From assembly GCA_965209055.1 (NCBI GenBank), contig OZ242374.1, positions 416,001 to 480,000 on the forward strand: a stretch of DNA of 64,000 bases, read 5' to 3'. Shown here one piece after another: positions 51,495 through 63,905 of this stretch. The DNA is from Acidobacteriota bacterium. Lineage in GTDB: Bacteria; Acidobacteriota; UBA6911; RPQK01; JAJDTT01. Both the position numbers and the translations under genes were made by a program. Every line of letters begins with the position of its first letter. The stretch's first letter is position 1. The notes under the pieces were generated by a model. That model was not told where the DNA came from. It saw only the letters and a program-made list of their open reading frames with translations, and ran no database searches.

Positions 51495-51750
51495 CTATTC
51501 TGCTGTATGGAGATCCTCTCCACCAAATTGCGGCTGGCGCGCCGTCGGTGCCGGTCGTAGATCTGGGTGTTGTGGGGATGGGCGCGCCCGGACAGGTACT
51601 GGATGTCCCCGAGCGGGTCGTTCTGACTCTACAGATCCGTCACCACTAGGTAGTGGAATGGTGGGGTGGGAGGATCTTCGGCAACCTAGCGACCTTGAGC
51701 CAGCGCTTAAACATCTGCTCCACGGCGAGTGGTGAAAACAACGGTCGGAT
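51495..51750 (-). pseudogene. Decayed C-terminal remnant of an XerC/D-like tyrosine recombinase
   Basis: QMFKRWLKVARLPKILPPH, then after a frameshift VVTDL*SQNDPLGDIQYLSGRAHPHNTQIYDRHRRRASRNLVERIS (catalytic Tyr region). Confidence 0.7.
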
Positions 51751-51751
51751 A

Positions 51752-52062
51752 GCCTTCCCGCAGGGATATTTTGGAAGGGAGCGACCCCCCCAGGGGGTGT
51801 GGCGCAGACGTAAATTGCGCCACACCCCCGCGCCCGCACCGGGCAGGAAAAAGGGGGGGTCGCTCCCTTCCACCTCCGCTTTCCCCGTGCGGGCACGGCG
51901 GAGCCGAAAACATGGCCGTAACAGCATGAGCGACAAAGAGATCGGGGAAATCGCGTGTGTAAGTTGGCAGACTCCCATGATGTAAGTTGCCCCCGTTGTC
52001 TCCCTTACACTCCCGGATCGACACGGTGGGGCGCTCTGTACCCGTCAAAATGAGCTCCCCGG
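51752..52062 (-). other. Structured non-coding element copy A (oriT-like)
   Basis: Perfect 20 bp IR 51772-51791/51853-51872 enclosing a perfect 14 bp IR 51793-51806/51816-51829. ATCCCTG next to the stem. TGTAAG motifs at 51958, 51981 and inverted at 52004. Confidence 0.65.
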
Positions 52063-52079
52063 CAAGCGTGTCGCCCGCC

Positions 52080-52262
52080 ACGAGAGCGTCGCGAACGTCG
52101 TCGTCGATCTCCACGCCGGCGGCGCGATCTTCCGCCCCTGGTCGCCACTCGATGGCCGGTCTCAGCGAGGCCCTGACGCTGCCATAGCCGTCGAATCGGC
52201 CCGCGTCCCTTTCAGCACACCCCGCATTTCTGGAAGAAGATTGCCTGTTCAATCCGCCAGAT
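52080..52262 (-). pseudogene. Possible decayed C-terminal remnant of a gene like the C-domain of 61528-63492
   Basis: RIEQAI ... FDGYGSVRASLRPAIE ... GVEIDD resembles IIGQAV ... LARYGGFLNAL ... RIRIDR. Same position relative to the element as the intact gene is to copy C. Confidence 0.35.
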
Positions 52263-52375
52263 CACTCCGTCCAGCCATGGGGCCGTCCACAGACGCTTGT
52301 ACGAGCACTGGCACGCGGCGGCTTGCCCACCGCGCCGTTCCGTGCCGCAGCGCCACGCGCTCAGGCGATCCAGAC

Positions 52376-52686
52376 GCCTTCCCGGCAGGGATCATTGGGA
52401 CGGGAGCGACCCCCCGAGGCGATGGCACGGAGAGTGCCCATCAGCCTGCCCCGCTTTGCCGATCCGGGAGGCAAAAAAGGGGGGTCGCTCCCGTCCACCT
52501 CCGCTTTCCCCGAGCGGCACCGCCGAGCCGCGAGGCGAGCCGTAACCCGAACGAGGACAGCAAGTTAGAGGAAAGTCGCCGTGCACGGCGAAGAGCCCTC
52601 ATGGTGCACATGCCCTCCGTTGTCTCATGTGCACTCCCCGAGCGGCACGGAACCCCACTTTTCAGCGGTCAAGATCGACCTCCCGG
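52376..52686 (-). other. Structured non-coding element copy B (oriT-like)
   Basis: Perfect 18 bp IR 52398-52415/52479-52496 with different inner stems. ATCCCTG next to the stem. GTGCAC at 52581, 52604 and 52629. Confidence 0.65.
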
Positions 52687-52740
52687 AATCCGGCTCGAAC
52701 CCCAGATCACGAAGCCTGCCGGGAGAACCACCACGGCGGA

Positions 52741-53976
52741 TCAACGGAGCCGGCCGGCCACCCGTTCCGGACTCTCGCCAGCCAGATAGCTCGCCCAGTC
52801 CTCCATGAGCCGACGCCGACGCTCGAACAGGTCCGTGCGCCGGTACGCCGCCTCGACCTTGTTCTTCACCACATGCGCCAGCGCCGCCTCGACCACCTCG
52901 CGTGGATGATCCGTCTCCTCGGCCGCCCAGTCCCGGAAACTCGACCGGAACCCGTGCGGCACGGCGGCGATCCCGTTCCGGCGCAGCAGCTTGCGCAACC
53001 GGCCGGAGCCGAGCGGCTTTCCGCCCCTTCGGGCGAAGATCAACCGGGTGGCTCCATGATCCAGCGTGCGTGCCTTCTCCAGGATCTCATTCGCCCGGCG
53101 GCACAAAGGCACCCGGTGCGCCCGTTTGGTCTTCATGCGCATTCCGGGAACCGTCCACGTCCTTTGCGCCGGATCGATCTCCGGCCACTCGGCCCACCGC
53201 ACCTCGCCCCACCTCGCCGCCGTGAGCACCAGGAACTCGAAGGCCAGCAGGGACACGGGCATCGCGTTGGAGGCCCGCACCTTCCGGAGGGCCGCCCCCA
53301 CCTCGCGATGCGGCAAGGCCGGCATGTGCCGCACCACGTCGTCCTGTGCTCCGAGCACCGACACGACCCGGTCGCAGGGGTTGTCGGTCCGGTATTCCAT
53401 CGCCACGGCCCACTCCAGGACCGTGCGGAGGCGCTGACGCACGGTCCGGGCCGTGCGCGACTTCACGTGCCAGATGGGCACGAGGATCTCCAGGACGTCG
53501 CCGCTGGTCACCTCCGAGACCGGCATCCGGCCGATGTGAGGAAAGGCGTAGCGTCGAAAGCTCGCCATCCAGTCGTGGGCCTGCCTCTGATTGCGCCAGC
53601 CGGCCCGCTTCTGCTCCACCACCCGCTCGGCGGCTTCGGCGAAGGTCGGCATGTTGCGCGTGCGTCGTCTCTCGGTCAGGGGATCTCCACCCTCGCGGGC
53701 CAGCTTGCGGTTGGCCCGCGCCTTCTCGCGGGCCTCGGCCAGGGACACCAGTGCCACACCGCCGAGTCCGAAGTCGCGGCGGCGGCCGCGGATGACGAGG
53801 CGTTGGATCCAGCTTCGTGCTCCGTTAGGCTTGACGAAGAGGTAGAGTCCGTTGCCGTCGCAGTGTTTGCCCGGTGGGGCGGAGCGCACGAAAGCGGCGG
53901 AGAGCGCCTTGTGGGGGTGGCGGCCCTTCGGCTTGGTCTTCCGGGGCAAAAGGGGAGCACTGATTACATCACCCAT
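52741..53976 (-). CDS. P4-like tyrosine integrase with arm DNA-binding (DUF4102-like) domain
   Basis: DGNGLYL.V...G.RSW, GLG....VSLAEAR, LTAARWGE, HRVPL, HGFRSSFRDW, LAH, AAY.R. Catalytic residues intact. Confidence 0.95.
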   Translation of the reverse strand: MGDVISAPLLPRKTKPKGRHPHKALSAAFVRSAPPGKHCDGNGLYLFVKPNGARSWIQRLVIRGRRRDFGLGGVALVSLAEAREKARANRKLAREGGDPLTERRRTRNMPTFAEAAERVVEQKRAGWRNQRQAHDWMASFRRYAFPHIGRMPVSEVTSGDVLEILVPIWHVKSRTARTVRQRLRTVLEWAVAMEYRTDNPCDRVVSVLGAQDDVVRHMPALPHREVGAALRKVRASNAMPVSLLAFEFLVLTAARWGEVRWAEWPEIDPAQRTWTVPGMRMKTKRAHRVPLCRRANEILEKARTLDHGATRLIFARRGGKPLGSGRLRKLLRRNGIAAVPHGFRSSFRDWAAEETDHPREVVEAALAHVVKNKVEAAYRRTDLFERRRRLMEDWASYLAGESPERVAGRLR

Positions 53977-54147
53977 TACACCATAATAAACGGGATGGAG
54001 ATGGATATCAAGGGACGTCAGGGGAGGAAGAAACGGGGTGAGAACAGGTCTAAACTAAAGAAAAACAACCACTTAAAATATATTCCGGGATCTCTTGGGA
54101 TATCTCTGGATTCAATGGGTGTGTTGCCGTCCCCCCTACCCCCCTGT

Positions 54148-59874: not shown

Positions 59875-61126
59875 ATGCCTCTCACTGCTATTGCCATCCG
59901 TGATGCCAAACCCTCCGCGAAGACCCGAAAAATGTTCGACGGACGCGGTCTGTACTTGGAATTAACTCCCCGCGGCAACAAGTGGTGGCGCCTGAAATAC
60001 CGCTTCGCAGGCAAGGAGAAGCGGATCTCCCTGGGTGTCTATCCGGACGTATCTCTGAAGCAAGCCCGGAAGTCGGCGCCAGGAGGCCCGCCGGCTATTG
60101 GCCCAGGGGATCAATCCCAGCGAGCACCGCAAAGCGCAGAAGGCCGCGAAAGAGCAAGGGGCCGCCAACAGCTTCGAAGCGGTGGCGCGGGAATGGTTCA
60201 GCAAACATTCTCCCAACTGGGCCACCAGTCATGCCAGCCGGGTCCTCAGCCGACTGGAGCGAGATGTTTTCCCGTGGATGGGCAGCAACCCCGCGCCTAC
60301 CATCACCGCACCCGAATTGTTGACGGTCGTTCGCCGGATCGAACAACGGGGGGCTCTGGAGAGTGCCCACCGGACCCTTCAGATCTGCGGTCAAGTATTT
60401 CGCTATGCCGTGGCCACTGGAAGGGCGCAGCGTGACCCTTCGGGTGACTTACGGGGTGCGTTGCCGCCGTTCAGGACCAAACACTTTGCAGCGCTCACCG
60501 AACCGAAGCAGGTGGGTCCCTTGCTGCGAGTGCTGGACGGCTACCAAGGGACACTGATCGTGCGTTGTGCCCTGCGCTTCGCTCCGTTGGTCTTCGTTCG
60601 ACCTGGAGAGTTACGCCAAGCTCAGTGGTCGGACATCGATCTGGAGGCGGCCGAGTGGCGCTACACAGTCAGCAAGACCGAGATTCGCCACATCGTTCCG
60701 CTCTCCCGCCAAGCGGTGGAGATCCTGCGCGAACTACACCCTCTGACCGGGCAGGGGCGCTATGTGTTTCCCAGTGCCCGCACTCCGAGGGGAGACCGGC
60801 CCATGAGCGACAATGCCGTTCTCGCCGCCCTGCGCCGTATGGGAATCGGGAAGGAGGAGATGACGGGCCATGGGTTTCGGGCGATGGCGAGAACGATCCT
60901 GGATGAAGTGTTGGGATTTCGTCCCGACTTCATCGAGCACCAGTTGGCCCACGCGGTGCGGGATCCCAACGGGCGGGCTTACAACCGCACGGCCTATCTC
61001 CCGGAACGGAGAAAGATGATGCAGGAGTGGGCCGACTACCTCGATCAACTGAAGGCTGATGTCGTTCCGATGCATCCAAAGCGACTGGATCAAAACTCAG
61101 GAATCCACCTGAGCGGTGGTCTCTAG
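59875..61126 (+). pseudogene. P4-like (IntA) integrase with a +1 frameshift near 60073
   Basis: MPLT...DGRGLYL...KWWRLKYR...GVYP.VSL, then a frame change. Removing one base (e.g. T60073) restores ARKRRQEARRLLAQGINP. RPGE, HIVPL, HGFR, LAH and AYNR intact. Confidence 0.88.
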
Positions 61127-61237
61127 TGCCGTCTGGTTTCCCGTCGAAAAAACCCAAGACATCCAGAGATCGCCTGCAAGGGAAGGGAACCGGCTTTCAA
61201 TCTCCTGGGCGGCCTGTGGCGAGCGGCTTTCAATGAG

Positions 61238-61324
61238 TGCCCGGGGTGGGAGTCGAACCCACATGGAGGGAGAACCTCCACAGGATTTTAAGTCCTGCGC
61301 GTCTGCCAGTTTCGCCACCCGGGC
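61238..61324 (-). tRNA. tRNA-Leu(TAA), CCA not encoded
   Basis: GCCCGGG acceptor stem, D-loop TGGCAGAC, anticodon arm CAGGA-CTTAAAA-TCCTG, long variable arm, GTTCGAC T-loop. Confidence 0.96.
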
Positions 61325-61527
61325 ATCCATCCGCCCCTCCAACGGGGACGGCCGGCCCGATCGTATCCAGGAAGCGCGCCCGGAAGCCACCACCGCCGGG
61401 CCTCCACGGCCGATGAATCCGTCTCCTGCCGCCAGGGAATATCCCGGCAAGGGTTTTCTCCGGAGTGTATTCTCAATCCACGAGATCCTGGTTCCGGACC
61501 CGCACTCCCGGAAGAGGTGCGATCCTC

Positions 61528-63492
61528 ATGCTCTGGCGCCGCCGAGTCCCACCCCCCGAACCCCGGCCGGTCCTGGAGTCCTTCCTTCTGCGGGTCCTCG
61601 GCCAGCTCCGCAACCGCCGGTCCCCCTGGCAACAACACCAGCCCTCCGAATACCGGATCTGGCCCGAGCGCTTTCCTTCCCACCAGCCCTACGCCGGGGT
61701 CCAGGGACTGCACCTTCTCTGTCGGGCCGCCGAGCGGGGATACTCTGACCCCCTTTGGGCCACCCGGGACCGGATCGAAGCCGCCGGGGGCCGGATTTCC
61801 AAGGATCAGACTGGTGTCCTCCCCCTCCCGGCCGGGGACCTTGATTCCCCGCCGCCGGAGAGCCCCCCGGCACAGAACGGCTCCGAAGAGGGCTCGGCCG
61901 CTCTTTTCAACGTCGAGCAGGCCACGGGCCTGTTCCTCCCGCCGCGTGACGATCGGCCCCCGCCTTCCTGGGAGGTCTACAAACGGGTCGAGCGTCTGCT
62001 CGAAGCCAGCGGCGTCGGCCGCCGCCACGAACCCGGTGACCGGGCCTACTACCACCTGGGAGAGGACCGGATCGTCCTGCCGCCGCAGGACCGGTTCCCC
62101 GGCGCCCGGCGCTATTACCAGACCCTTCTTCACGAACTCGGCCACGGGACCGGCCACCCGGACCGGCTCAACTGTCCGGGCCTCGCCGCCGCCCTTCGGG
62201 ACGGGCCCGACTCGACCGCTGCCGCCCGCGAAGAGCTCCGGGCCGAGATCGCGGCCCTGATGACCGGCGTCCGGATCGGCCTCGGCCACCGGCCCCGCAA
62301 TGGGGAGTTCTACACCAAGCACTGGATCCAACTCCTGGAGTCCGATCCCCGGGAACTGGTCCGGGCCGCTGCCGACGCCTGGCGCATGAGCGAGGCCCTG
62401 CTCGCCGGCGCCCGCGAGCTCAAGGAGCGGACCACCGAGCCGTCCTCCGTCCGTTCCGGCGTCCGGGAGGCACCGCGGCTCCGGATCCGACAGATTGCCC
62501 CGGCGCTCGCCTCCCCTCCGCTCCCCGCTCTGGGAGCGCCCCGTCCGGCGCCGGGCGCCGACGTGCTGGAGCGCTTCGGCTGGCACGGGGAAGAGGCCGA
62601 GTGGATCGCCTTGGTCTGCCGCCACGGCGGCTGGTTCACCCGCGCCCAGTTCTGCGCCCATTTCCGTTGCCGGAGAAACCGCGCCCTGCGCTTCGTCCGC
62701 CGCCTCGTCGCACGCCGCCACGGCGTCGAGGAGGACCTCGACGGCCTGCCCACCACCACCCGGACCTGCCGCATCGCCGCCAAGGCCTTGTACCGCGCGC
62801 TGGGCCTGGAGCGCGTCCCCCACCCCGGATCTTCCGCTTGGGTCCGGCTCCGCCGTCTGCTCTCGCTCGATTACGTCATCGATCACCCCCAGCGGCGGTG
62901 GCTTCCCACCGGGCGGGAGAAGGCCTGGGCGCTGGAGGCGCTGGGCCTTTCCCGGCGGCTGTTCCCGTGCCGCCACTATGCCGGCCATGCTCAGGGACGG
63001 AGCCGCTACTTCCCCCGCAAGCTCCCGCTGGCCCTGGAGGAGGACCGGGCGACCTTCGTCTACGTCGATCCCGGCCGGGACACCGACTCGGAACTGCTCT
63101 CGTGGGGGGCGGAGCACGCCCCGCTCTGGGCCTCGCTACGCGCACAAGACCACCCGGTGCACGTGGTCGCGGTGGCCCGCGACGACCTCCGCCGGGAGCG
63201 GGCCGAAAAGGTCCTGCGCCGCTGGGCCGGCCCTGGTCCCGTGGCCGAGTTCGAGCCCCTGTCCCCGGAGGAGGAGCAGGTCATCCGCATCATCGGGCAG
63301 GCCGTCCGGACCAACGACCGGGAGTGCCTCGCCCGCTACGGCGGCTTTTTGAACGCCCTGGACCACCGCCAGGCGTTGCTGGAGCGGGCCACCGCCCCCA
63401 TCCCTCAAAACCGCATCCGCATCGACCGGGGCCGAACTTGGCTCTCGGTCCGGATTACAGCGGAAACGGAGGTAGGATTGTGGAGCGCCTGA
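61528..63492 (+). CDS. Polyvalent fusion: ArdC-like ssDNA-binding domain, zincin-like MPTase, and a wHTH/replication-relaxation-like C-domain
   Basis: PW...Y.G...RGYSDP.W.T....GG.I.K...FNVEQ (ArdC-N). AYY....DRI.LP, TLLHELGH.TGH..RL, REELRAEI (MPTase). After a Pro-rich linker: FGW...EAEWIALVC.HGGWFTRAQF, RRLLSLDYV, FVYVDPG. The C-domain assignment is inference. Confidence 0.8.
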   Translation: MLWRRRVPPPEPRPVLESFLLRVLGQLRNRRSPWQQHQPSEYRIWPERFPSHQPYAGVQGLHLLCRAAERGYSDPLWATRDRIEAAGGRISKDQTGVLPLPAGDLDSPPPESPPAQNGSEEGSAALFNVEQATGLFLPPRDDRPPPSWEVYKRVERLLEASGVGRRHEPGDRAYYHLGEDRIVLPPQDRFPGARRYYQTLLHELGHGTGHPDRLNCPGLAAALRDGPDSTAAAREELRAEIAALMTGVRIGLGHRPRNGEFYTKHWIQLLESDPRELVRAAADAWRMSEALLAGARELKERTTEPSSVRSGVREAPRLRIRQIAPALASPPLPALGAPRPAPGADVLERFGWHGEEAEWIALVCRHGGWFTRAQFCAHFRCRRNRALRFVRRLVARRHGVEEDLDGLPTTTRTCRIAAKALYRALGLERVPHPGSSAWVRLRRLLSLDYVIDHPQRRWLPTGREKAWALEALGLSRRLFPCRHYAGHAQGRSRYFPRKLPLALEEDRATFVYVDPGRDTDSELLSWGAEHAPLWASLRAQDHPVHVVAVARDDLRRERAEKVLRRWAGPGPVAEFEPLSPEEEQVIRIIGQAVRTNDRECLARYGGFLNALDHRQALLERATAPIPQNRIRIDRGRTWLSVRITAETEVGLWSA

Positions 63493-63557
63493 GGGGTCGC
63501 ATGCGCCCGGTCCCGGGTGGAACCTGTGGACATCGTGGATCCACGGGCTGCGAAGAG

Positions 63558-63905
63558 CACGGAAAGTCCCATTGACGGCAATGTGGCGGACCGCTCCCGG
63601 GCCGTGTTCCACCTCCGGGGGCGTGTCCGGAGAAGTCCCAGGATGTGAAACACACATGGGGGGGTGTGTTCCACTCTCGGAGCAGCGAGTGTTACACGCT
63701 TCCTTTCCGCTATCTTGTTGAGCCCCTTCGAGTTGTCCCCGTCCTCCTGAAGGAGGCGCGCCCGGACGAGGAGTCCGGGGAGAAGAAGTGAGCGACCCCC
63801 CCTTTTTGCCGCCCGGTGCGGGCGCGGGGGTGTTGCGCAATTCACATCTGCGCAGCACCCCCTGGGGGGGGTCGCTCCCGTCCAAATTATCCCTGGCGGG
63901 AAGGC
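63558..63905 (+). other. Structured non-coding element copy C (oriT-like)
   Basis: 63790-63905 closely matches the reverse complement of copy A. ATCCCTG at 63889-63895. GTGNAACAC-type motifs at 63604, 63645, 63666 and 63689. Confidence 0.65.

Follow-up and report, generated by a model that had tools for sequence, protein, structure and literature searches.

A structured spacer beside the coupling protein gene of Acidobacteriota conjugative elements is a candidate origin of transfer

Introduction

What is the structured noncoding element that occurs three times in a 64,000-nucleotide stretch of an Acidobacteriota genome, and could it be an origin of transfer (oriT) for conjugative DNA? The stretch, called the window below, covers positions 416001 to 480000 of the single 6,077,182-bp contig (OZ242374.1, assembly GCA_965209055.1) of a 98%-complete genome. 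A first-pass annotation made from the window alone took its copies, A, B, and C, for members of a family of oriT specificity variants, two of which are stacked in an island that has no relaxase gene. Here we describe the anatomy, copy number, and synteny of the element, the covariation within its structure, and the covariation of its short repeats with a protein of ~310 amino acids that we designate X310. On balance, we lean toward the reading that the element is indeed an oriT.

Results

The element is a spacer in the secretion operon of conjugative elements

Only one conjugative element of the genome is complete (C1:1826-1854 kb), and it contains a copy of the structured element (1832115-1832393, minus strand). 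The genes there run ParA, primase-helicase, VirB2, VirB4, VirB9, VirB6/TrbL, X310 (1832399-1833328), element, and type IV coupling protein (T4CP, of the TrwB/TraG type), with T4CP starting ~54 nt past the element. The element, ~300 to 330 nt long, noncoding, and highly structured, is the spacer between X310 and T4CP, which we take to be its ancestral setting. In other genomes the order is VirB10-VirB6-VirB8-X310-element-T4CP-VirB11, with all genes co-directional. At least 573 stretches in a species-representative collection encode a relative of X310; among the best 80 of these, which were examined, T4CP lies downstream of X310 at 68 loci, and the metagenome-assembled genomes are labeled Acidobacteriota, Terriglobia, Thermoanaerobaculia, Vicinamibacteraceae, Longimicrobiales/Gemmatimonadota, and, once, Gammaproteobacteria. 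The T4CP start falls 285 to 335 nt after the X310 stop codon in 60 distinct sequences. This position between X310 and T4CP, within clusters of type IV secretion system (T4SS) genes, bears out the link to conjugation that had been proposed from the window alone.

Seven relaxase families (PF03432, PF13814, PF08751, PF07514, PF01076, PF03389, and PF02486) gave no match above the cut-off anywhere in the genome, in a search that was not aimed specifically at MOBC and MOBM; the single sub-threshold Rep_trans match lies in a methylase-bearing region. The first-pass statement that the window island has no relaxase is therefore true but uninformative. Since a full T4SS and T4CP are accompanied by none of the seven families, X310 is the obvious relaxase candidate by elimination. 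Judged from their gene content, the conjugative elements appear to carry a VirB-type T4SS, T4CP, and X310 in place of any known relaxase.

The X310 family counts 3,534 database proteins at an E value of ≤0.001, with "hypothetical protein" as the only name among the 120 relatives listed, and occurs at an E value of ≤1e-20 in 19 of the 301 genomes of a phylum sample. Its best Pfam match is an unrelated TetR C-terminal domain (TetR_C_33, E value of 0.029); NCBIfam and PHROGs returned no match, and a tblastn search of 72,556 plasmids returned no homologue. In a search of PDB sequences the one similarity with a bearing on function was weak, between residues 16 to 92 and the winged helix of SlyA (E value of 0.94 with the single sequence and 0.19 with a profile); the ~200 further residues hold many invariant charged or aromatic positions, e.g., Y111, E124, E126, and H192. 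X310 also occurs as a domain of larger proteins, fused to an ArdC N-terminal domain and a peptidase in 16 of 24 longer homologues and at 1992 kb and 2522 kb of this genome. In the 675-amino-acid fusion protein encoded at copy C, the C-terminal 300 residues are the X310 domain (profile match at genome positions 478563-479462). This recurrent fusion ties X310 to a single-strand-DNA-binding module of the anti-restriction type.

Among distant relatives, whose X310 proteins are 28 to 38% identical, the GAGCGACC/GGTCGCTC hairpin of the element (see below) is present at 21 of the 26 loci examined. The remaining five are four members of a paralogous subfamily and copy C, with a stem that did not pass the pairing score. 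The hairpin is preceded by two or three locus-specific short repeats and followed by a small gene, and the ATCC..GGAAGG tail is absent. This small gene, located between the hairpin and T4CP, begins M(P/A)(V/L)IKPRTRGK... (L028-L036, L043, L045, L048, and L049) and looks by eye like a ribbon-helix-helix protein, which could be a relaxosome accessory factor; the only copy scanned (82 amino acids, L048) has no Pfam match. At L049 (G166:C1:323001-343000) a set of genes resembling a cyclic-oligonucleotide-based antiphage signaling system (SMODS nucleotidyltransferase, SAVED plus Cap4 nuclease, and a ThiF-like gene) directly follows T4CP/VirB11 of the homologous conjugative element. The paralogous subfamily (41 to 46% identical; C1:1263638-1264552, L022, L023, L039, and L047) has no hairpin element downstream and lies in a non-T4CP neighborhood.

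The hairpins of the element covary

Direct reading and an alignment of copies A, B, and C (470 columns, 71% mean column identity) confirmed the layout that had been claimed for them: short repeats, a long GGGAGCGACCCCCC...GGGGGGTCGCTCCC stem that encloses two inner hairpins, an A/T spacer, and ATCCCTG(N)CGGGAAGGC. The reported compensatory change in the outer stem, which is GGAAGGG/CCCTTCC in A and GGACGGG/CCCGTCC in B, is real. The three short repeats described earlier are present, together with a fourth copy, found in the apical loop of the second inner hairpin; we refer to them as arms 1 to 4. The abrupt stop in similarity at the 3′ end is there as well and is explained as the start of the next gene, for in intact elements GGAAGG lies ~12 nt before the ATG of T4CP, and N-terminal remnants of T4CP follow several of the genome copies.

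The larger alignment (A3) has 61 rows, comprising 60 distinct X310-T4CP spacers and the spacer of the complete conjugative element of this genome. Its invariant blocks are GAGCGACCC, GGGTCGCTC, TCC, and GGAAG, and the hairpin combines the invariant GAGCGACC/GGTCGCTC core with an outer stem that covaries. RNAalifold predicted 22 pairs on this alignment, 9 of them with double changes. A specified structure of 27 pairs (arm1:arm2, the big stem, the first inner hairpin, and a terminal mini-hairpin) was compared with 500 shuffles, none of which scored as high in pairing (93.2% of cells versus 84.2% shuffled), in the number of double-change cells (191 versus 82.9), or in the covariation score (0.298 versus 0.143). 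When the partners were slid by 1 to 3 columns, pairing dropped to 32 to 47%. Two counts were not significant: that of pairs with a double change, 13 of the 27 tested (reached in 15 of 500 shuffles), and that of further pair types (reached in 165 of 500).

Individual pairs illustrate the exchange. Pair 185/285 is CG in 31 cases and UA in 21, pair 209/225 is GC in 24 and AU in 23, and pair 300/305, which closes the mini-hairpin, is CG in 36, UA in 23, and GC in 1. The mini-hairpin has the variants TCCC-TNC-GGGA and TCCT-TNC-AGGA, with 4 bp over the likely ribosome-binding site. Across the phylum (21 loci), the outer stem alternates between GC (8), AT (2), and TA (11) at position 3, between CG (15), TA (5), and AT (1) at position 5, and between AT (11) and GC (10) at position 6. 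The pair tables contain G-U frequently and A-C rarely, which identifies the folding strand as the sense strand of X310 and T4CP. The covariation shows that the single-stranded form of the element matters, and it fits RNA and transferred single-stranded DNA alike.

The nick consensus of MOBP relaxases and transfer DNA (T-DNA) borders is YATCCTG, and a similar string, ATCC(C)TG-like, follows the long inverted repeat of the element on its 3′ side at a distance of a few bases. The first-pass annotation had read this ATCCCTG as a nick site of the MOBP type, to be tested by its conservation in a larger alignment. In the 61 aligned elements its last base is not conserved: the G occupies a loop position that varies, and the whole string forms half of the covarying mini-hairpin; the genome has no match to PF03432. 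The proposal is therefore not supported, and we regard the resemblance as coincidental.

A four-fold sequence code tracks X310

The arms carry a code of 6 to 9 nt, inverted in arm1 and direct in arms 2 to 4, that differs between elements and agrees within them. The 4-nt code cores in A3 are TCAC (20 loci), GTGC (18), GCGC (14), GGAC/GTAC (7), TTAC (1), and GCAC (1). Arms 1, 3, and 4 match arm2 in 19, 18, and 18 of the 20 TCAC loci, in 17, 15, and 17 of the 18 GTGC loci, and in 11, 14, and 14 of the 14 GCGC loci, respectively. The mean identity between arms of one element is 4.7 to 5.2 of 6, compared to 3.5 to 3.9 with shuffled partners and a maximum of 4.0 to 4.3 in 1000 shuffles. Pairing between arm1 and arm4 extends to 86.4% of cells (73.6% shuffled; 0 of 500 as high), and at the five GGAC/GTAC loci and L084, arm1 agrees with arm4 and arm2 with arm3. 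Together, these two patterns make a direct contact between arm1 and arm4 possible.

The code also follows the protein encoded next to it. Among 61 related X310 sequences with 7 code types, compared as pairwise identities that ignore kinship, residues 41 to 55 are 78.5% identical between proteins of the same code and 38.0% between proteins of different codes. The gap is at most 6.4 points for residues 1 to 30 and 81 to 200, and a second, weaker region lies at residues ~201 to 305 (10 to 26 points). The contrast with the rest of X310 controls for overall relatedness. In matched examples, two pairs with different codes are 40 to 53% identical over residues 41 to 55 and two pairs with the same code are 94 to 100% identical. 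These residues fall within the weakly winged-helix-like stretch, and X310, we infer, may be the reader of the arms. The earlier idea of a conserved core with variable short repeats that act as specificity variants agrees with both the match among arms and this covariation. The ribbon-helix-helix reader that came with the idea does not, as the repeats track the ~310-amino-acid X310, with its weakly winged-helix-like N terminus.

A high-copy family in one genome

A BLASTN search with the last 120 nt of copy C found 61 matches of ≥85 nt in the genome, A, B, and C among them, and ~9 additional, diverged C-type copies with a core match of only 41 to 64 nt. The element is thus a high-copy family, and the first-pass count of three holds for the window only. 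All 8 other genomes of the genus that were searched have it too, as does one genome from a different family, where the core is up to 94% identical; in all, it occurs in 13 of the 41 genomes searched, this genome included. By reading, the copies here comprise ~32 of the TCAC type, 16 to 18 TTAC, 8 GTGC, one C-type, and a few mixed ones, and the arm region is kept in 60 of the 61 (exception, 4508895+). Arm4 agrees with arms 1 to 3 in all copies except 479905+, 1601502+, 481927-, and 3844685+.

The terminal mini-hairpin is kept in 57 of the 61 copies, while the remaining four share an AT-rich insertion at an identical point. This insert, which starts with GGACTGTTTC..., cuts the mini-hairpin near 1583531(+), 3165139(-), 3375003(+), and 4508895(+) and looks like an insertion element that targets the mini-hairpin. 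Two open reading frames of the insert at 3375 kb (121 and 302 amino acids) were scanned and have no Pfam match. In a comparison with DNA-contig reads the element repeats are collapsed or multi-copy. Among the data sets listed as containing the stretch, none is recorded as RNA. Three RNA runs that share a species label with one of the DNA data sets containing it placed 0 reads on window positions 51500-54100, which says nothing on expression.

Small islands carry the element without transfer genes

Most copies adjoin tyrosine integrases, remnants of X310 or T4CP genes, and defense genes. In a tblastn survey of the genome, a full-length integrase of the family intC4 lies ≤3.5 kb upstream on the same strand of 21 of the 61 copies, and in 8 of those 21 its stop codon is ~368 nt before the 3′ end of the element. 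A second tyrosine recombinase family, intC2, whose copies are 94 to 100% identical, follows 8 copies on the same strand at 0.66 to 2.3 kb. Many copies are directly followed by a small gene of 115 to 131 amino acids or its remnant, and 6 by N-terminal remnants of T4CP. In 6 of the 10 loci sampled for downstream genes, the first gene or genes are of defense type and start 0.05 to 0.6 kb downstream; they encode an N6/N4 DNA methylase, type I HsdR plus HsdM, a C5 methylase plus HATPase_c_3, GmrSD_N (two loci), and a type ISP restriction enzyme.

In the intC2 (type I) islands, e.g., 2975915(-), 3005325(+), and 6075335(+), the small gene after the element is Zn-ribbon-like and truncated at about residue 50, just before intC2, which suggests that these islands insert into that gene beside the element. 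Integration of islands into an oriT, that of conjugative elements, is the subject of one report according to its title (PMC7563843).

The integrase of the window island forms with B and A a unit of ~2.4 kb that contains no other gene and occurs in three genome copies at 98% identity. In two of the three, the unit runs on for ~810 nt past A to a second common end, solo pieces of which (~270 nt) are found elsewhere. The copy at 1066 kb (C1:1064565-1067800, L052) sits between metabolic genes and dprA/topA; its flanks are ~500 kb apart in relatives, so that it marks a rearrangement breakpoint, and no empty site is definable. Pairs of copies are 100% identical across 0.8 to 1.8 kb. Several island types are, by these identities, apparently recent multi-copy units.

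The codes are stacked in some of the islands. The window has GTGC (B) followed by TTAC (A), and tandem stacks of TCAC, GTGC, and TTAC, in that order, occur at 816-814 kb and 2677-2678 kb. A third stack, at 3145-3153 kb, repeats this order with cargo between the copies. Islands that have no transfer genes and collect several variants in tandem, as the first-pass annotation supposed, are therefore found both in the window and in these three-code stacks.

Searched with an X310 profile built from alignment A2, the genome holds 6 full-length X310 genes and 36 fragments, nearly all of which immediately precede a copy. A full-length X310 accompanies only 3 of the 61 copies, and T4CP only 1. VirB4, VirB6, VirB9, VirB2, and the primase-helicase are single-copy genes that leave no fragments elsewhere in the genome, from which it follows that the multiplied unit is a short module centered on the element, not a whole conjugative element. 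In 120 pairwise comparisons of 16 TCAC-type copies, identity is 83 to 91% over the three blocks of the element, with 0.3 to 1.1% one-sided gap columns, and 61%, with 18.5% gap columns, over the adjacent upstream block of X310 remnants. Read in this way, the element apparently stays intact while its flanking genes decay.

Copy C and other features of the window

The coordinates of the features are listed in Table 1. Copy C is a recombinant with a mismatched outer stem: its 5′ ~320 nt are of the C type and its 3′ ~115 nt of the common type. Up to the left arm of the big hairpin it is 80 to 100% identical to the C-type copy at 2522 kb, and from that point on it is 95 to 100% identical to the common type. 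The switch falls inside a 20-nt window that contains the 13-nt invariant GAGCGACCCCCCC. Outer-stem arms of different types are also combined in five other copies (577200-, 1596825-, 2973249+, 4966017-, and 1601502+, read from 7-mers). The switch in copy C may be an alternative lead to a point of strand exchange; ordinary recombination within the sole shared stretch could equally produce it.

Rfam, searched at gathering thresholds, matched only the tRNA in the window, and in E-value mode over A, B, and C it gave 14 matches with E values of ≥0.4 and scores far below gathering; the check proposed in the first-pass annotation thus found no family for the element. The frameshifted integrase that converges on tRNA-Leu(TAA) is probably the remnant of an older tRNA-targeting island beside the ArdC-X310 gene. 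Just past the 3′ end of A, at 51500-51750 on the minus strand, one frame resembles the stretch that precedes the catalytic histidine box in tyrosine recombinases and may, by sequence reading, be another integrase remnant.

Table 1 Element copies and neighboring genes in the window
Feature	Position	Strand	Remarks
Element copy B, code GTGC	52376..52686	-	Same code type as the genome's only complete conjugative element
X310 gene remnant before B, last ~12 codons + stop	~52662-52700		Sequence reading
B arm1 (GTGCACATG)	52626..52634	-	Code inverted
B arm2 (CATGTGCAC)	52604..52612	-	
B arm3 (GTGCAC)	52581..52586	-	
B big hairpin	52398..52496	-	Encloses two inner hairpins; left arm 52496-52479, right arm 52415-52398
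B arm4 (GATGGGCAC)	52442-52434	-	Loop of second inner hairpin
B terminal mini-hairpin, TCCC-TGCC-GGGA + AGGC	52376..52391	-	Likely ribosome-binding site of ancestral downstream gene
Element copy A, code TTAC	51752..52062	-	Arms GTGTAAG / CTTACA / CTTACAC; arm4 TTTACG
P4-type tyrosine integrase, family intC4	52741..53976	-	Directly upstream of B; Pfam Arm-DNA-bind_3, Phage_int_M, Phage_integrase
Element copy C	63493..63905	+	Recombinant; 63558-63905 in the first-pass annotation
Copy C arms, GTGAAACACAC type	63645-63655, 63664-63674, 63689-63697	+	
Copy C big hairpin	63783-63883	+	Arm4 63840-63846 (TCAC type); mini-hairpin 63890-63901
Fusion gene, ArdC N-terminal + zincin-like metallopeptidase + X310 domain	61465..63492	+	Directly upstream of C; PF08401, PF18818
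tRNA-Leu (TAA)	61237..61324	-	Between broken integrase and fusion gene
Frameshifted P4-type integrase, two overlapping open reading frames	59875..61126	+	Converges on tRNA-Leu 3′ end; Pfam

Discussion

With somewhat more belief than doubt, we interpret the element as an undescribed oriT that is recognized or processed by X310 and has been copied onto relaxase-less hitcher islands. Four properties argue for this interpretation: the place beside the T4CP gene, a single-stranded hairpin with an invariant duplex core, a code matched to X310, and the intact state of the element in islands that have no transfer genes. In the mechanism we envisage, the winged-helix-like N-terminal region of X310 would read the 6- to 9-nt code, present four times in the element, and the conserved part of X310 or a partner protein would act on the invariant GAGCGACC/GGTCGCTC hairpin formed in the single sense strand. 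The strand would then be passed to the coupling protein encoded next to the element. Of the 61 copies, most lie outside conjugative elements, in small islands that retain only an integrase and the element or the element and cargo, and such islands would be relaxase-less hitchers, mobilized in trans by a helper with an X310 that recognizes their code; the window island carries two codes, GTGC on B and TTAC on A. A bolder form of this proposal, which we find doubtful, is that X310 founds a new relaxase (MOB) family acting on a bipartite oriT, that a single helix of X310 reads the four-fold code, presented in part in a hairpin loop, that code switching creates mutually exclusive transfer channels, that islands stack up to three codes to ride any helper, and that the junction of copy C in GAGCGACCCCCCC marks the nick site.

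Several points weigh against the oriT interpretation. DNA binding and nicking by X310, and transfer itself, are what we infer from the comparisons. The folding strand is the sense strand of the operon, so the covariation fits a structure in the mRNA too, and the mini-hairpin overlaps GGAAGG shortly before the T4CP start codon, which resembles translational control. Four cognate sites would also suit a winged-helix protein that is simply a transcription factor. The association between code and X310 comes from related sequences, with kinship ignored, and gene conversion, rather than selection, may partly explain the high identity among copies within the genome.

The main rival, which we take seriously though we consider it unlikely, is that the element is a cis-regulatory region of the T4SS operon. 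X310 would be a winged-helix transcription factor with four operators, the hairpins would be an mRNA structure that gates the translation of T4CP, with the mini-hairpin hiding the ribosome-binding site, and the island copies would be relics or helper-sensing switches for island genes. The flanking genes all point the same way, which places the spacer in the sense transcript; that strand tolerates G-U pairs; the TCCC/GGGA pairs lie over GGAAGG ~12 nt before the ATG; and arms 1 and 2, inverted, and 3 and 4, direct, are arranged like operators and covary with a helix-turn-helix-like region. Type I islands, moreover, have the element upstream of the small gene and intC2. Such a regulator would nevertheless leave much unaccounted for. 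Copies that have no downstream gene stay intact (B followed by A, and the three-code stacks), eight loci have the element directly downstream of intC4, ending ~368 nt past its stop, and the element keeps its sequence where the neighboring X310 and T4CP genes decay. The ~200 further residues of X310, with their many invariant positions, exceed the needs of a simple repressor, the conjugative element would otherwise have no DNA-processing enzyme, and the stacking of different codes is poorly explained.

The proximity of integrases raises the improbable alternative of an attachment-type recombination site or arm for the adjacent tyrosine integrases, in which the repeats would be arm-type sites and the 3′ end the crossover. 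It draws on the constant ~368-nt distance from the intC4 stop codon in eight copies, the arm-DNA-binding domain of intC4, the exact end of the 2.4-kb integrase-B-A unit of the window at the 3′ end of A, and the insertion-sequence-like insert in the mini-hairpin of four copies. It is contradicted by intact conjugative elements, where the element is internal, between X310 and T4CP; by the order tRNA-Phe, integrase, X310, and element at 1582 kb, where attachment at tRNA-Phe is ~3 kb away; and by the covariation of the repeats with X310. The integrases on the two sides of the element come from unrelated families, the 3′ end is not repeated at the other end of integrase-B-A beyond the 7-nt ATATCCC, and two of the three copies of the unit extend beyond A. 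A separate small RNA gene, e.g., an antisense or regulatory RNA of mobile elements, would account for the strong structural covariation and for an arm1-arm4 pairing that resembles a pseudoknot or kissing contact; we give it very little credence, as the element matches no Rfam family, the covariation of code and protein calls for a protein that reads sequence, and the invariant sequence on both stem arms suggests recognition of a duplex beyond pairing. Rolling-circle origins are laid out as bind and nic loci, and a conserved hairpin with variable, initiator-specific repeats resembles that layout. A replication-type origin of the excised element (rolling-circle bind/nic or single-strand initiation) with X310 as initiator would also suit the primase-helicase and ParA encoded in the conjugative element. 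We rate this equally poorly: the place beside T4CP in the T4SS operon points to transfer rather than maintenance, and the islands have no replication gene. Both functions can coincide in conjugative elements, which makes this partly a sub-case of the oriT interpretation.

Other candidates were tried and set aside. A guide RNA scaffold of the TnpB/IscB type would require a gene of that kind, and none adjoins any copy; an integron attC array does not agree with dispersed copies, among which no IntI-type context was seen; and for an Frpo-like single-strand promoter, inspection by eye (no promoter scan was made) showed no -35/-10-like boxes in the stems of the window copies.

If the element is an oriT, the system as a whole would be of a known kind. 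iOriT elements are described in a 2026 preprint as integrative islands with an oriT that have no relaxase or mating-pore genes, often outnumber their helpers, and have defense genes near the oriT (10.64898/2026.01.13.699239). The islands here would correspond to them in that integrase islands carry a copy of the candidate oriT of the helper, in that 61 copies face one complete conjugative element, so that carriers outnumber the helper, and in that defense genes adjoin the oriT and one spot is occupied in tandem. In the window, B shares code and architecture with the copy of the complete conjugative element, integrase-B-A contains no other gene, and the T4SS genes are single-copy, as expected of an iOriT-type island if the element is an oriT. 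That study covers six nosocomial species, whereas the element here belongs to uncultured genomes of the Acidobacteriota/Gemmatimonadota type; no known relaxase family is found in the helper here, stacks reach three specificity variants, and the smallest unit is ~2.4 kb (an integrase and two elements), compared to >4 kb, with one 2-kb exception, in theirs.

SmpO of the staphylococcal pWBG749 family is a small accessory factor alongside a known relaxase. It binds 5′-GNNNNC-3′ sites and sets oriT specificity, non-conjugative replicons mimic each subtype, and specificity has switched in evolution (PMC8136818). The likeness is a conserved oriT with subtype-specific short sites read by a DNA-binding protein; the differences are that the putative reader here has 310 amino acids, a large conserved extra domain, and no known relaxase beside it, that four sites are present, one of them in a hairpin loop, that the carriers are integrated islands rather than plasmids, and that the sequences are unrelated. 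In ICESt3, the oriT lies in the ~200-bp spacer between orfK and orfJ, which is sufficient for mobilization in trans, and orfJ is the gene of the relaxase RelSt3 (PMC6499999). A short spacer between co-directional transfer genes, beside the gene of a DNA-processing protein (here a putative one), is common to both systems. RelSt3 is a Rep_trans (MOBT) protein, a family (PF02486) for which nothing above the cut-off was found here, and the element is longer and much more structured than the ICESt3 spacer, its oriT function being that of a candidate. A literature search on conjugative or T4SS elements, relaxases, and oriT in Acidobacteriota/Gemmatimonadota, with supplementary files outside its scope, found no description of the element or X310. 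The kind of system is known, and the family, architecture, and candidate enzyme are undescribed in the literature searched.

Beyond the well-studied phyla, a recognizable relaxase or oriT is missing from many integrative elements with a T4SS, and their mobility is therefore not predictable. X310 and the ~300-nt element are a concrete, testable protein-DNA pair with a readable specificity code. Even if the regulatory explanation were true, T4SS operons would have in the element a regulatory module of unusual elaboration. Should X310 prove to be the DNA-processing enzyme, a MOB family would be added, and relaxase-less islands with restriction-modification and other defense genes would become recognizable as mobilizable in these lineages. 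The covariation of code and protein would offer a natural system for the study of oriT specificity switching, and it predicts the residues to swap.

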